Assembly: GCA_049970895.1 (NCBI GenBank)
Contig: JBMFMB010000001.1
Location: forward strand, 1-64,000
Length of the DNA stretch: 64,000 nt
Origin: Candidatus Bathyarchaeia archaeon
GTDB taxonomy: Archaea; Thermoproteota; Bathyarchaeia; Bathyarchaeales; Bathycorpusculaceae
Direction of reading: 5' to 3'
Shown: piece after piece, positions 55,539 through 58,652 of the stretch
Layout: every line of letters starts with the position of its first letter
Numbering within the stretch: the stretch's first letter is position 1
The notes under the pieces: generated by a model
Seen by the model: only the letters and a program-made list of their open reading frames with translations
The model's database searches: none
What the model was told of the DNA's origin: nothing
Translations under genes and position numbers: made by a program

Positions 55539-57338
55539 TTAATCCTCCTCTGTTATGGCTGTATGCCTCACATAATAGTATTCGCCAATCTCCTTCTGAT
55601 ACTTGTCCAGCTTTGAGCCCTCCTTGTTGACACGGGGTCTTTTTGTTACGGGGTCCCTTCTGAAGGTTACATTCATCTCTTTTAGGAAGGCGTTCATCCC
55701 ATCCCTCAGGCTTGTTGGCGGGTTGGCTATGCCCCTTATTCCGGGCTCGCCGGTAAAAACCATCAAACGGTCCGCGATAAAGTCTTGGGCTACAACATCG
55801 TGTTCAACAACGAAAGCTGTTGCGTTCCTCGCCTCTATCACTCGGCGTATGATTCTCGCCATGTTAAGCCTCTCCTCAACGTCCAAGTAGGCGCTAGGCT
55901 CGTCCAAGAGGTAAAGCTCAGCCTTCCTTGATAGGCACGCGGCTATGGCGACTTTTTGAAGTTCGCCTCCGCTTATTTCGGCTATGTTCCTCTCCAAAAG
56001 GGGTGTTATGCCTAGTGGCTGGAGGATTTCAGCCTTATACCAACCCGACATAAAGTCTTCTTTCGCTATGCTTGCTAGAAGTTCTTGCACTGTGCCCTCA
56101 TATTCCGCCGAAATATACTGGGGCTTGTAGCTCACGGTCAGCTCTTTAAACTCTCTCCCGTCGTCAGTTTTCTCCAAACCAGCCAAAATCCTGACGAAGG
56201 TTGTTTTTCCAATGCCGTTTGGTCCGAGAATCCCTATGATTTCGCCTTTTCTGATTTCGCCTGGCTGAGCGACAAGCTTGAAGCCCTCATAAGTTTTTTC
56301 AATCTTGTCCCATTTTAGAAGGGTTTCGCCAGCGCTGAAGCTTACGGTTGGCGGTTTTTCGTGGAATATTATGGCTTCTTTTCTGAAACGGATGTTTTCA
56401 TCTGGAATGTAGCCTTGAAGGTACATGTTTATGCCAGTTCTGACGCCGTGCACGTGGGAGACTATTCCGTAAACACCAGCCTCACCGTAGAAGATGCATA
56501 TCTGGTCTGATAGGTAGTCGATTATTGCTAGGTCGTGTTCTGCCACAACAACAATTTTCTCTTCCTTCTTCAGGCTTCTTATGGCTCTGGCAACTTCAAG
56601 CCTCTGTTTCACATCGAGATAGCTGGAAGGCTCATCGAAAAGGTAGACGTCGGCTTCCCGGCATATTGCAGCTGCTACGGCCACCCTCTGCAGTTCACCA
56701 CCGCTTAGGGCTTCAAGGGATCTATCCCAAATGTTCTTCAACTCAAGTTTTCTGGCGATGTCTTCAAGGACGCCCCGCTCATCCGCCTTTCTGAGGAGTT
56801 CGCCAACCCTTCCCGAAACGGCTCTTGCAATCTTGTCAACGTATTGGGGTTTATGTACAACTTTTAGTTTGCCCTCGCTCATCCGCTGGAAATAGTCTTG
56901 CAGCACTGAGCCCCTAAAATACCTTATCAAATCGTTCCAGCCTGGTGGATTCTCATAGTTTCCAAGGTTTGGCTTGACTTCTCCGGAAAGTATTTTCAGC
57001 GTTGTCGTCTTTCCTATACCATTTTTTCCAAGCAGTCCCAAAACAGTGCCAGGCGAGGGTGTTGGAAGCCTATAAAGCTTGAAGGTGTTTGGTCCAAATC
57101 TGTGGCTGCACTCTTTTTCCAGCTCTTCTGGAAGGTTCACTATTGATATGGCATTGAAGGGACACTTCTTCACGCATATTCCGCATCCGGAGCATAAAGC
57201 TTCAACAATTAGTGGCTTTGTGTCTTCGAAGCGTATTGCCTCAACGTGGCTTCTGACCATTGGGCAAAAGCGTTGGCACTGTTTTCCGCAACGTTTTGGC
57301 TTGCACTTGTCTGAATCAAGCACTGCTACGCGTGTCAT
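55539..57338 (-). CDS. rli: Ribosome recycling ATPase ABCE1/RLI
   Basis: N-terminal Fe-S domain (CKPKRC..QC.RFCP; CSGCGICVKKCP), two NBDs with GxNGIGKT and LSGGELQ/ISGGELQ; start may be as far up as 57374. Confidence 0.97.
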   Translation of the reverse strand: MTRVAVLDSDKCKPKRCGKQCQRFCPMVRSHVEAIRFEDTKPLIVEALCSGCGICVKKCPFNAISIVNLPEELEKECSHRFGPNTFKLYRLPTPSPGTVLGLLGKNGIGKTTTLKILSGEVKPNLGNYENPPGWNDLIRYFRGSVLQDYFQRMSEGKLKVVHKPQYVDKIARAVSGRVGELLRKADERGVLEDIARKLELKNIWDRSLEALSGGELQRVAVAAAICREADVYLFDEPSSYLDVKQRLEVARAIRSLKKEEKIVVVAEHDLAIIDYLSDQICIFYGEAGVYGIVSHVHGVRTGINMYLQGYIPDENIRFRKEAIIFHEKPPTVSFSAGETLLKWDKIEKTYEGFKLVAQPGEIRKGEIIGILGPNGIGKTTFVRILAGLEKTDDGREFKELTVSYKPQYISAEYEGTVQELLASIAKEDFMSGWYKAEILQPLGITPLLERNIAEISGGELQKVAIAACLSRKAELYLLDEPSAYLDVEERLNMARIIRRVIEARNATAFVVEHDVVAQDFIADRLMVFTGEPGIRGIANPPTSLRDGMNAFLKEMNVTFRRDPVTKRPRVNKEGSKLDKYQKEIGEYYYVRHTAITEED

Positions 57339-57424
57339 CTTACCAGCAACTGCCAATCTATTGTTTCCGGCCAATAAATATGAGCCTTAAAATCAGATTA
57401 ACTGGTGCTAAAAACTTTTCGGGT

Positions 57425-57464
57425 TAAAAAGAAAACGAGGAAAACGGGAAGCCCTTTAAGGCTT
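57425..57464 (-). terminator. Hairpin plus T-rich tract after the micro-ORF
   Basis: Minus strand AAGCCT-TAAA-GGGCTT stem-loop followed by TTTTCCTCGTTTTCTTTTT. Confidence 0.5.
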
Positions 57465-57536
57465 TCACCACTCCTCTTCTTCCCATTCCTCTTCTTCCCA
57501 GTCTTCCTCTTCCCATTCCTCTTCCTCTTCGAACAC
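57465..57536 (-). CDS. 23-aa acidic Trp-periodic micro-protein MFEEEEEWEEEDWEEEEWEEEEW
   Basis: GTG start 5 nt after a perfect GGAGGTGA SD (57542-57549); synonymous GAA/GAG variation between repeats; TGA stop; below the ORF-track cutoff. Confidence 0.75.
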   Translation of the reverse strand: MFEEEEEWEEEDWEEEEWEEEEW

Positions 57537-57656
57537 CTTATTCACCTCCACTAACCAACAGTTTGGCATAGTGAGAGCATCACCAGATGCTTTAAGCATT
57601 TTCATTCGACTCTTGTCGAGAAACAGCCTTGATGACAAGCCACCATCTTAAAAGAT

Positions 57657-58652
57657 TTACTTCAGAAATTTTGCCGTTAGGGCAGCCTCAGGATCCTGCA
57701 TTCCAGGCTTGAGGTAAGCCCAACACAAATGTGTGGAGTTGTGGGCTGCTCCAATCTCGCCCCGAGTGTCCACGGCAATCAAGCCCATGGAATTGTAGGT
57801 TCCAACTATCCGCTCATTAACAAGCTTTATGGCGGCTTCAACAGCCTCCTGGGCGGTTTTGCCACTTTCCATGTAGTTGCAAACGGTTTTCGCCAAAACA
57901 AGCCTTATGGCAATCTCACCAACACCAGTGGCTGAACAAGCCCCACTCCTATTGTCGGCGTATGTGCCGCAACCAATAAGCGGCGAGTCGCCAATCCTAC
58001 CTGGAATCTTTAGTGGAAAGCCGCCGGTGGAGGTTGCAGCCGCAACATTCCCTTCAGAATCTAAGGCAACGGCGCCAACGGTTTCAAGGTTGAAAAGCTC
58101 TGGGTGGCTTTTAACCAGCTCTGCAAGTTTTGGCAGCTCAAACTTGCCATCCAGCAAGGCCTGCTTTGCCTGCTCATAATATTTTAGGCGGAGCTCTGTC
58201 AGCGGGTTTCGCCTTTCAAGGTTAAACAATCTTGCGAGTTTCTCTGCTCCCTCGCCGACGATGAAGACGTGGTCTGTCTTCTCCATAACTATCCGTGCAA
58301 GCCTAACAGGATTCCTAATATCCTTCAAAAGTCCGGCAGCCCCAGCCTTCAAGGTTTTTCCATCCATGACGGAGGCTTCCATCTCCACAGTTTTTTCAAT
58401 GGTTAGGCTTGAGCCATAACCGGCATTGAAAACGCCTTCATCCTCCATGACAGCGACAGCCTCAACAACAGCGTCGAGGGCGCTTCCACCCCTCACCATG
58501 ACATCAAAGCCAGTTTTAGCCGCCTTCTTAACACCCTCAAGCCCCGGGTTAACGCGTTCTGGATGCCAATTTCCAGCGCCGCCGTGAACAACAATTACTG
58601 GTTTCGGCGTTTTCCCTTCCTCCAACATTGGAATGATAGGTTTCACGTCCAT
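57657..58652 (-). CDS. Isoaspartyl peptidase/L-asparaginase (Ntn hydrolase)
   Basis: VVHGGAG, FNAGYGS, E/TVGAVALD nucleophile Thr, ATSTGG, GRIGDSP, SATGVGE. Confidence 0.94.
   Translation of the reverse strand: MDVKPIIPMLEEGKTPKPVIVVHGGAGNWHPERVNPGLEGVKKAAKTGFDVMVRGGSALDAVVEAVAVMEDEGVFNAGYGSSLTIEKTVEMEASVMDGKTLKAGAAGLLKDIRNPVRLARIVMEKTDHVFIVGEGAEKLARLFNLERRNPLTELRLKYYEQAKQALLDGKFELPKLAELVKSHPELFNLETVGAVALDSEGNVAAATSTGGFPLKIPGRIGDSPLIGCGTYADNRSGACSATGVGEIAIRLVLAKTVCNYMESGKTAQEAVEAAIKLVNERIVGTYNSMGLIAVDTRGEIGAAHNSTHLCWAYLKPGMQDPEAALTAKFLK

Follow-up and report, generated by a model that had tools for sequence, protein, structure and literature searches.

A conserved acidic micro-protein gene with a terminal tryptophan upstream of ABCE1 in Bathyarchaeia

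All archaea and eukaryotes possess ABCE1 and depend on it, and the way in which the archaeal protein is recruited, regulated and brought to the hand-over from ribosome recycling to initiation is only partly understood. Among the described proteins closest to the subject of this work, DSS1/Sem1 is a small, acidic, disordered protein of eukaryotes with a conserved tryptophan, and is a partner of the proteasome lid, BRCA2 and RPA. The N-terminal acidic motif of eIF3j has a key tryptophan and binds the RRM of eIF3b; to our knowledge, eIF3j belongs to a complex that archaea lack. The LysW/ArgW amino-group carriers are small and acidic, with a tryptophan near an acidic C-terminus that ends in EDWGE, where the terminal glutamate is the attachment site. 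Here we describe a micro-gene of 23 codons on the minus strand of a 64,000-nucleotide stretch of DNA from a Candidatus Bathyarchaeia archaeon (contig JBMFMB010000001.1, positions 1 to 64,000; "the window" in what follows). It encodes an acidic peptide with periodic tryptophans and lies upstream of the ABCE1 gene. Because it is kept beside ABCE1 across many families and has a very strong ribosome-binding site, this micro-gene is a candidate component or regulator of archaeal ribosome recycling.

The partners of ABCE1 and the effects of acidic sequence on ribosomes also have a literature of their own. PMC7780240 presents eIF3j (Hcr1) as an ABCE1-associated recycling and initiation factor that is located together with ABCE1 on the small subunit. 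The C-terminal tail of the archaeal stalk protein aP1 binds ABCE1 and the translational GTPases, according to PMC6125642. For the eukaryotic cytosolic iron-sulfur protein assembly (CIA) pathway, two reports describe a C-terminal tryptophan in Lto1 and a [LIM]-[DES]-[WF]-COO- tripeptide, in a system that matures the Fe-S protein Rli1/ABCE1 (PMC4523923, PMC10245660). Finally, N-terminal runs of acidic residues are reported to bring about intrinsic ribosome destabilisation (IRD) in eukaryotes and pausing in Escherichia coli, and this pausing is relieved by an ABC-F ATPase with twin nucleotide-binding domains (NBDs) and is used by the MgtL leader (PMC12673854, PMC11282234, PMC9718836).

The micro-gene is a real protein-coding gene, and its peptide is under purifying selection. 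A sequence-only reading of the window had picked out an open reading frame (ORF) of 23 amino acids (aa) with a Shine-Dalgarno (SD) sequence, a spacer, a GTG start, a TGA stop and periodic tryptophans, and each of these elements was confirmed by reading and translating the minus strand. The GTG occupies 57536-57534, 22 more codons follow, and the TGA lies at 57467-57465. Tryptophan is found at residues 8, 13, 18 and 23 of MFEEEEEWEEEDWEEEEWEEEEW, the last of which ends the peptide. Acidic residues are consecutive from codon 3 in an ORF that has fewer than 30 residues altogether; glutamate and aspartate make up about 80% of the composition, with the aromatic residues spaced between them, and cysteine, lysine and arginine are absent. 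The repeat units vary in the third codon position (GAA/GAG/GAC).

How well is this frame kept in related genomes? An ABCE1 scan gave 80 loci from metagenome-assembled genomes of Bathyarchaeia, with ABCE1 proteins 69-95% identical to the query, and a crude composition scan detected an acidic-Trp ORF just upstream of ABCE1, in the same strand and frame, in 74 of them. Four of the six remaining loci (L029, L030, L031 and L035) carry frame-broken remnants of the acidic ORF in the spacer between the peptidase gene and ABCE1, and the other two have different upstream DNA. Since nothing except these remnants is left in four Bathyarchaeia, the gene has been lost repeatedly and is dispensable. Among the 74 ORFs with a defined start (73 loci and the window) the length is always 20-25 aa and changes by whole codons only; the start codon is ATG in 41, GTG in 28 and TTG in 5, and in 67 a GGAGGTG precedes the start by no more than 20 nt. 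All three stop codons are used (TAA 41, TGA 23 and TAG 11; n=75), and the C-terminal residue is tryptophan in 68 of 75 members, methionine in 6 and glutamate in 1. The distance from the stop to the start of ABCE1 is 79-500 nt, with a median of 125.

The codons themselves are equally informative. The acidic tracts contain 1522 codons, of which 1103 are GAA/GAG, 250 TGG and 128 GAC/GAT. Because other all-purine codons number just 7, the constraint is on glutamate and tryptophan and not on purine-richness. A single 22-residue peptide is encoded by 10 distinct DNAs that differ at synonymous sites alone, and an alignment of 25 members has invariant residues at E14, E19, E20, E22 and W23. Glutamate is far preferred over aspartate, and the tryptophan positions, including the terminal one, are kept. 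The earlier suggestion of selection on the peptide rather than slippage is borne out by this synonymous-only variation together with the conserved SD, start and stop, and the proposed check of frame and SD in relatives came out in its favour, with broken frames in the four loci named above. An ORF that arose by chance in a GA-rich repeat, or an RNA element rich in purines, would account for the low-complexity, purine-rich sequence and for the silence of gene callers. However, the frame, start, SD and stop are kept in 74/80 loci, the length changes by whole codons, TGG is retained where other all-purine codons are rare, and the ten DNAs for one peptide differ synonymously only. We regard a non-coding explanation as practically negligible.

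Judged by its sequence, the SD of the micro-gene in the window is predicted to be among the strongest ribosome-binding sites of the genome: in a crude count, an 8-nt SD match was present in only 4 of 1096 long ORFs. The micro-gene is an independent and very probably highly translated unit. It is also unannotated, as had been proposed. An exact look-up of 10 family members from 10 genomes found none of them (0/10) in a collection of 15 billion proteins. In Pfam, neither the window peptide nor the acidic-only frames of L116, L128, L129 and L122 matched a family at E <= 1, and of the 1766 candidates that a 45-aa relative drew in a protein database search, not one reached E <= 0.001, presumably because of its low-complexity composition. 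A PDB sequence search produced one chance match (E 7.9). In the ESM Atlas the form from genome G086 is present as a record, and its nearest clusters are unnamed, with scores of 0.76-0.77 that lie below the lead threshold. The literature search, which covered acidic-Trp peptides, small proteins upstream of ABCE1 and ribosome profiling of Sulfolobus small proteins outside subscription journals and supplements, found no description of the peptide. We regard this as an undescribed micro-protein family without a known homologue, similar in kind to small acidic, aromatic-anchored docking peptides.

The family extends well beyond the close relatives of the window. We searched a sample of 401 genomes across the phylum for the pattern EEEEW-stop, with the reversed pattern as the control. 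The pattern is found in 155/401 genomes, vs 12 matches of the control, and it is present in 21/25 genomes of the family to which the window belongs and in 23/23 of family f24. Twenty regions from 16 other families (L114-L133) contain versions of the same design with 30-60 residues. Representatives of f19, f42 and f30, which EEEEW-stop misses, have forms ending in EEEW directly upstream of ABCE1, and a second pattern adds families f36, f42, f43 and f57; the second-pattern total of 155/401 is an upper bound, since some of the matches are out of frame. Neither pattern gave a convincing match in f15 (0 and 2 of 56), f26 (0/6) or f28 (0 and 2 of 24). In f15, f23, f25, f26, f28, f32 and f38, the single representative examined per family showed no such ORF in the 1.5 kb around ABCE1, which means not found rather than proven absent. 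Three matches were obtained in viral contigs, none of them an acidic micro-ORF and none beside ABCE1. Across the family the design is 20-60 residues long, with runs of 3-8 Glu/Asp broken by tryptophan (sometimes by Phe, Leu or Met), and members nearly always end in ...EEE(E)W-COOH.

Within the genome of the window the motif is unique. The string EEEEWEEE occurs in the window ORF only (the 3 reported matches overlap within the same ORF) in 1.34 Mb, and none of 1436 crude ORFs of this genome encodes another protein ending in an acidic run and tryptophan.

The strongest contextual signal is the link to ABCE1. For the linkage analysis the first 107 listed motif places (101 genomes) were crossed with 150 listed ABCE1 places, which gave 86 genomes with both coordinates; the count leaves out the entries after G262, including families f24, f16 and f31. 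Among the matches listed, the micro-ORF lies upstream of ABCE1, on the same strand and within 700 nt, in 60/86 genomes. It is on the same strand at 0.9-2.2 kb upstream in 4/86 and divergent from ABCE1 at about 180 nt in 2/86. The motif is on another contig than ABCE1 in 18/86, and in 2/86 the two share a contig but are over 100 kb apart; the matches on other contigs include non-members, namely an 8-codon frame (L091) and a LysW-like Zn-ribbon protein with an acidic tail (L119). ABCE1 is the only recurrent neighbour of the micro-gene. The neighbour on the upstream side, which is an isoaspartyl/beta-aspartyl peptidase-like gene in the window, is elsewhere an ABC ATPase, a dehydrogenase or Sua5. 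A functional link to the flanking genes had been called speculative; the one to ABCE1 is strengthened by these counts, and nothing ties the micro-gene to the peptidase gene, because the upstream neighbour varies between lineages.

In several families the two genes are apart. In the single-contig f24 genomes G011 and G051 the micro-gene is 859 kb and 629 kb from ABCE1, in family f48 it is 116-118 kb away, and in f31, f35, f40 and f50 the two genes are on different long contigs. A convergent gene follows the micro-gene in L120 (EF-2), L125, L126 and L128. Since several families have the micro-gene at a distance from ABCE1 or before a convergent gene, we favour a trans-acting peptide over a leader peptide alone, and because stand-alone copies exist, the product itself would matter and not only the act of translating it. 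The neighbours in unlinked lineages are diverse, and genes of translation or RNA predominate: EF-2, AspRS, Sua5/Cgi121, a wyosine enzyme, RNase P p29 and ribosomal proteins. This is what one might expect of a general polyanion, that is, a nucleic-acid mimic or a charge chaperone for basic ribosomal, chromatin or RNA-binding proteins, which would have no specific tie to ABCE1 and would adjoin it as part of a translation-gene neighbourhood. The strongly acidic composition with spaced aromatic residues would suit such a role, as would the wide variation in length and repeat number (20 to about 60 aa), which would be in keeping with a low-specificity electrostatic binder. However, it is ABCE1 and no other translation gene that adjoins the micro-gene in the 60 genomes counted above, in many families, and the near-invariant C-terminal EEEEW with an immediate stop (68/75) suggests a defined docking site instead of bulk charge. 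We consider a general polyanion unlikely.

What, then, might the peptide do? We propose a trans-acting role for it, as an intrinsically disordered peptide that docks on its target or regulates it. The glutamate runs would lie along a basic surface of the target, and the tryptophan side chains and the free C-terminal tryptophan carboxylate would act as anchors. The target would most likely be ABCE1 itself or the ribosomal site where ABCE1 works, because deeply conserved gene order usually marks interacting products; gene order conserved this deeply is typical of products that interact physically. In this way the peptide could influence how ribosomes are recycled or how they pass from recycling to initiation. 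Taken as a whole, the reading of a trans-acting, translation-linked peptide is, in our judgement, about evenly balanced between right and wrong. That ABCE1 itself is the direct partner is a more tentative suggestion, and we are similarly doubtful of the fullest version, in which the free (E4W)n peptide is an accessory subunit or regulator of archaeal recycling that docks on the basic Fe-S domain of ABCE1 or on its stalk-tail site and gates ribosome engagement or the initiation hand-over. A complex prediction for ABCE1 and the 23-aa peptide, both supplied as alignments, scored 0.00; it was run without controls, and as chains of fewer than 30 residues fall outside the calibration, it is evidence neither way.

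Four points weigh against this proposal. Synteny is the one line of evidence that suggests the ABCE1 link. Since ABCE1 sits in translation-gene neighbourhoods, the adjacency could reflect co-regulation and not binding. The micro-gene is not universally required for ABCE1, because it has decayed in the four loci with broken frames and was not found convincingly in f15, f26 and f28. Finally, by analogy with the cases cited above, the N-terminal consecutive acidic residues would fit a sensor acting in cis in the ABCE1-linked lineages, a possibility on which the transcription signals of the locus bear directly.

These signals and the other features of the locus are collected in Table 1. Their conservation was assessed in an alignment of 13 close relatives, and their offsets were checked in the 74 Bathyarchaeia loci.

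Table 1. Features of the micro-gene locus, in the order in which the minus strand is read; coordinates are positions in the window.
Feature	Position	Strand	Remarks
Palindrome TCGAC-AAGA-GTCGA	57606..57619		Abuts the BRE/TATA-like block; candidate operator or extended promoter element
B recognition element (BRE)/TATA-like block GAAAATGCTTAAA, putative micro-gene promoter	57591..57603	-	AAAA and TTA invariant in 13 relatives
Conserved block GCTCTCACTATGCC (GCTCTC-CTATGCC)	57565..57578	-	About 13-25 nt downstream of the TATA-like box; CTCTC and TAT invariant in 13 relatives
Shine-Dalgarno GGAGGTGA	57542..57549	-	5-nt spacer ataag to the GTG start
Micro-protein coding sequence	57465..57536	-	23 codons and TGA; product MFEEEEEWEEEDWEEEEWEEEEW
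Small hairpin, AAGCCT/AGGCTT-type stem	57447..57464	-	Directly 3' of the stop; minimum free energy -6.6 kcal/mol, z -1.6 vs shuffles
T-rich tract TTTTCCTCGTTTTCTTTTT	57426..57444	-	TTTCTTT invariant or nearly so in close relatives
Two A/T-rich blocks (GAAAAGTTTTTAGC; TTTTAAGGCTCATATTTAT)	57373..57420	-	Between the T-tract and ABCE1; conserved in 13 relatives
ABCE1 (RLI) gene	55539..57338	-	Conserved downstream neighbour; ATG at 57338

Upstream of the ORF, AAAATGYTTAAA-like blocks occur at the same offset in nearly all 74 loci, and TATA-like boxes are also found upstream of the micro-gene in other families of the phylum, in every case examined. The claim that this is a separate micro-gene with a BRE/TATA-like block of its own is supported by the conservation of that block in relatives. 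The block GCTCTCACTATGCC probably marks the expected transcription start region. The palindrome is present in exact form (TCGAC-N3-5-G[TC]CGA) at -79 to -87 from the start codon in 25/74 loci, and a version with one mismatch (TCGAC..GACGA) is visible in most of the others. A regulon search with the palindrome and the adjoining TTAAA found no second site in the 1.34-Mb genome. The palindrome, whose position is conserved across Bathyarchaeia, looks like a dedicated operator of the micro-gene and is a candidate for that role, which would in turn imply a specific regulator.

Downstream, the alignment of relatives shows TTTCTTTTT after the ORF and then, ahead of ABCE1, the two A/T-rich blocks, which are conserved. 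In 69/75 loci there is a T-tract at a median of 27 nt after the stop, and it is likely to be an archaeal termination signal. The hairpin is not conserved across relatives (mean z -0.54, with z < -1 in 22/69). The terminator that the sequence-only reading had assigned to the micro-gene, a hairpin with a T-tract, is accordingly retained as to its T-tract and given up as to its hairpin. The A/T-rich blocks are a candidate promoter of ABCE1, and in the complete genome G086 a T-run and a TATA-like box for ABCE1 stand directly after the micro-gene. Compact arrangements with a spacer of about 50 nt, for example L118, have no clear separate ABCE1 promoter, and it is in these few arrangements that co-transcription with ABCE1 seems more likely. 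One sequencing run of uncertain kind, stored as contigs, includes contigs of relatives that cover the region; it is uninformative on expression, transcript ends and strand.

This layout is the ground for a cis-acting sensor: whether the T-tract is read through, or translation re-initiates at ABCE1, would depend on the act of translating the poly-Glu frame at the N-terminus. Ribosomes that are destabilised or pause on the acidic runs, or that terminate or recycle slowly at the W-stop, would set it off, and ABCE1 synthesis would thus be tied to recycling capacity. The close upstream position on the same strand in most of the genomes compared would suit such a sensor, as would the T-tract that separates the two genes and the short, promoter-poor spacers of lineages such as that of L118. 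The whole 20-25-aa product would presumably still be within the exit tunnel at termination, and N-terminal acidic runs are reported to destabilise eukaryotic ribosomes and pause those of E. coli (PMC12673854, PMC11282234, PMC9718836). However, these precedents are not archaeal. The micro-gene is far from ABCE1 or before a convergent gene in at least six families, whereas a leader peptide lies always upstream of the gene it regulates and on the same transcript. The conserved A/T-rich, promoter-like blocks between the T-tract and ABCE1 also argue against the sensor. An attenuator would have a conserved terminator or anti-terminator structure at the end of the ORF, but the hairpin found there is mostly no better than shuffles. 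A pure sensor of acidic runs, moreover, has no need of the bias for Glu over Asp, of fixed tryptophan positions or of a terminal tryptophan. We think control in cis quite improbable as the sole explanation, and cis sensing in the linked lineages could coexist with the trans-acting role that we prefer.

A further alternative is that the peptide is covalently modified, either as an amino-group carrier similar to LysW or as the precursor of a ribosomally synthesised and post-translationally modified peptide (RiPP). LysW-type carriers are likewise small and acidic, with a tryptophan near the C-terminus, and one match encodes something of both designs: the 93-codon frame of L119 (2227-2508, + strand) has a LysW-like Zn ribbon followed by a poly-Glu tail of about 55 residues with spaced Trp/Leu and the end EEEEEW. 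Its profile matches are PF21344 (E 6.7e-7), FYDLN_acid PF09538 (above its cut-off) and NF041070 (E 8.4e-10, below its cut-off), and it may be a fused or convergent relative of the micro-protein. The window peptide, however, has no cysteine and no Zn ribbon with its two CxxC pairs, lacks EDWGE and ends in tryptophan instead of the terminal glutamate, and neither it nor the other pure acidic forms gave a match in Pfam, PF21344 included for the window peptide. No LysX/ArgX-type ATP-grasp ligase is adjacent; the neighbours are a peptidase, ABCE1, cytidine deaminase, Topo VI B or an HtrA-like protease, varying by lineage. Nor does any enzyme family recur beside the micro-gene across the 20 loci L114-L133 from 16 families, and an ATP-grasp, radical-SAM, cyclase or peptidase-transporter set is not conserved next to it. 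The modified-peptide precursor that had been suggested finds no conserved modifying enzyme nearby, and we judge both the carrier and the precursor very improbable.

Some observations on the surroundings of the micro-gene are recorded here in their own right. The peptidase-like gene ends at 57657, and the micro-ORF frame is open upstream as far as a TTG at 57638 (57 aa); the protein sequence of this extension is not conserved, and it contains the promoter-like block. The micro-ORF and the peptidase gene are in the same frame, with TAA-ATC-TTT-TAA between them (57465-57659), and there is no sign of anything beyond coincidence. The ABC ATPase upstream of the micro-gene in L114, L117 and L118 was considered as SufC, which would have been an Fe-S link, and was rejected; the best matches were of the LolD/MacB/FtsE type, all below their cut-offs. 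In f24, where the micro-gene is far from ABCE1, its conserved neighbour is divergently transcribed and encodes a protein of 190-200 aa (L129, 2629-3228, + strand; L130, 2718-3284, + strand). The two copies, from different genera, share 38% identity. The protein belongs to no Pfam family, and a search of the genome of the window with this query found nothing. A link to AdoMet decarboxylase in f24 was likewise rejected, as the genes downstream in L129 and L130 are unrelated.

Two observations concern individual relatives. In L113 (genome G384) of the sister family f2, which belongs to the same order, and in the other f2 matches, the motif is on a different contig from ABCE1; the L113 frame starts with a basic N-terminus, MSRKKTPPKG, and continues with an acidic-Trp part that contains EDWGE. 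The ABCE1 orthologues scanned have the Pfam domains Fer4_RLI, Fer4 and two copies of ABC_tran. The ABCE1 frame of L136 (358-3123, + strand; family f28) is 921 aa long and has an insertion of about 330 residues in the Fe-S domain, between ...CIGCGICL and ...HNCVKKCPFEAI, which is intein-like in appearance.

The hypothesis of a trans-acting peptide is directly testable, as the peptide can be synthesised and has its own tryptophan fluorophores. The micro-gene also offers a natural test case for how archaeal ribosomes deal with an N-terminal poly-acidic sequence. And as it illustrates, conserved micro-proteins of about 20 residues are absent from archaeal annotation.

How does the micro-protein compare with the systems described at the outset? 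The closest of them are analogues and not homologues. The acidic leaders (MgtL, the EttA-dependent genes and IRD-prone proteins) share with it a short ORF, an early acidic run and a place beside the gene of a twin-NBD ribosomal ABC ATPase. They differ in that the micro-gene also occurs far from ABCE1 and before convergent genes, that its tryptophan positions and terminal tryptophan are kept and that ABCE1 is not an ABC-F protein. DSS1/Sem1 is similar in being free-standing, tiny, highly acidic and presumably disordered, with a few conserved aromatic anchors in acidic runs. The window peptide, in contrast, has a third of the length, repeats (E4W)n almost perfectly, ends in Trp-COOH and is encoded beside ABCE1. 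The DSS1_SEM1 profile of Pfam gave no match at E <= 1 for the acidic forms, and L119 matched other families only.

The remaining comparisons are with partners of ABCE1 and its pathway. The aP1 tail is also an acidic, flexible segment with a hydrophobic end that docks on ABCE1, but the tail encoded in this genome, ...KKKKEEEEKAREEAALEGLGALFG, is of mixed charge, ends in Leu/Phe/Gly and contains neither tryptophan nor a repeat. The micro-protein, moreover, is not attached to the ribosome. The aP1 of this genome is a separate gene that ends in LEGLGALFG, and the window peptide neither matches the Ribosomal_60s profile of Pfam nor has a C-terminal end of the GLxxLFG type. With the CIA signal, which serves docking in a pathway dedicated to ABCE1, it shares an acidic residue before a C-terminal tryptophan carboxylate. 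Position -1 (W) agrees, as does -2 (E), whereas -3 is glutamate and not L/I/M, and there is no deca-GX3 domain. The likeness to eIF3j lies in the acidic stretch with tryptophan and in a functional setting that is the same as the one suggested by synteny. eIF3j is a far larger protein, and the comparison is one of analogy only. If the fullest version of our proposal is true, the micro-protein would be an archaeal functional counterpart of the acidic-Trp modules, such as those of eIF3j and Lto1, that serve ABCE1 in eukaryotes.

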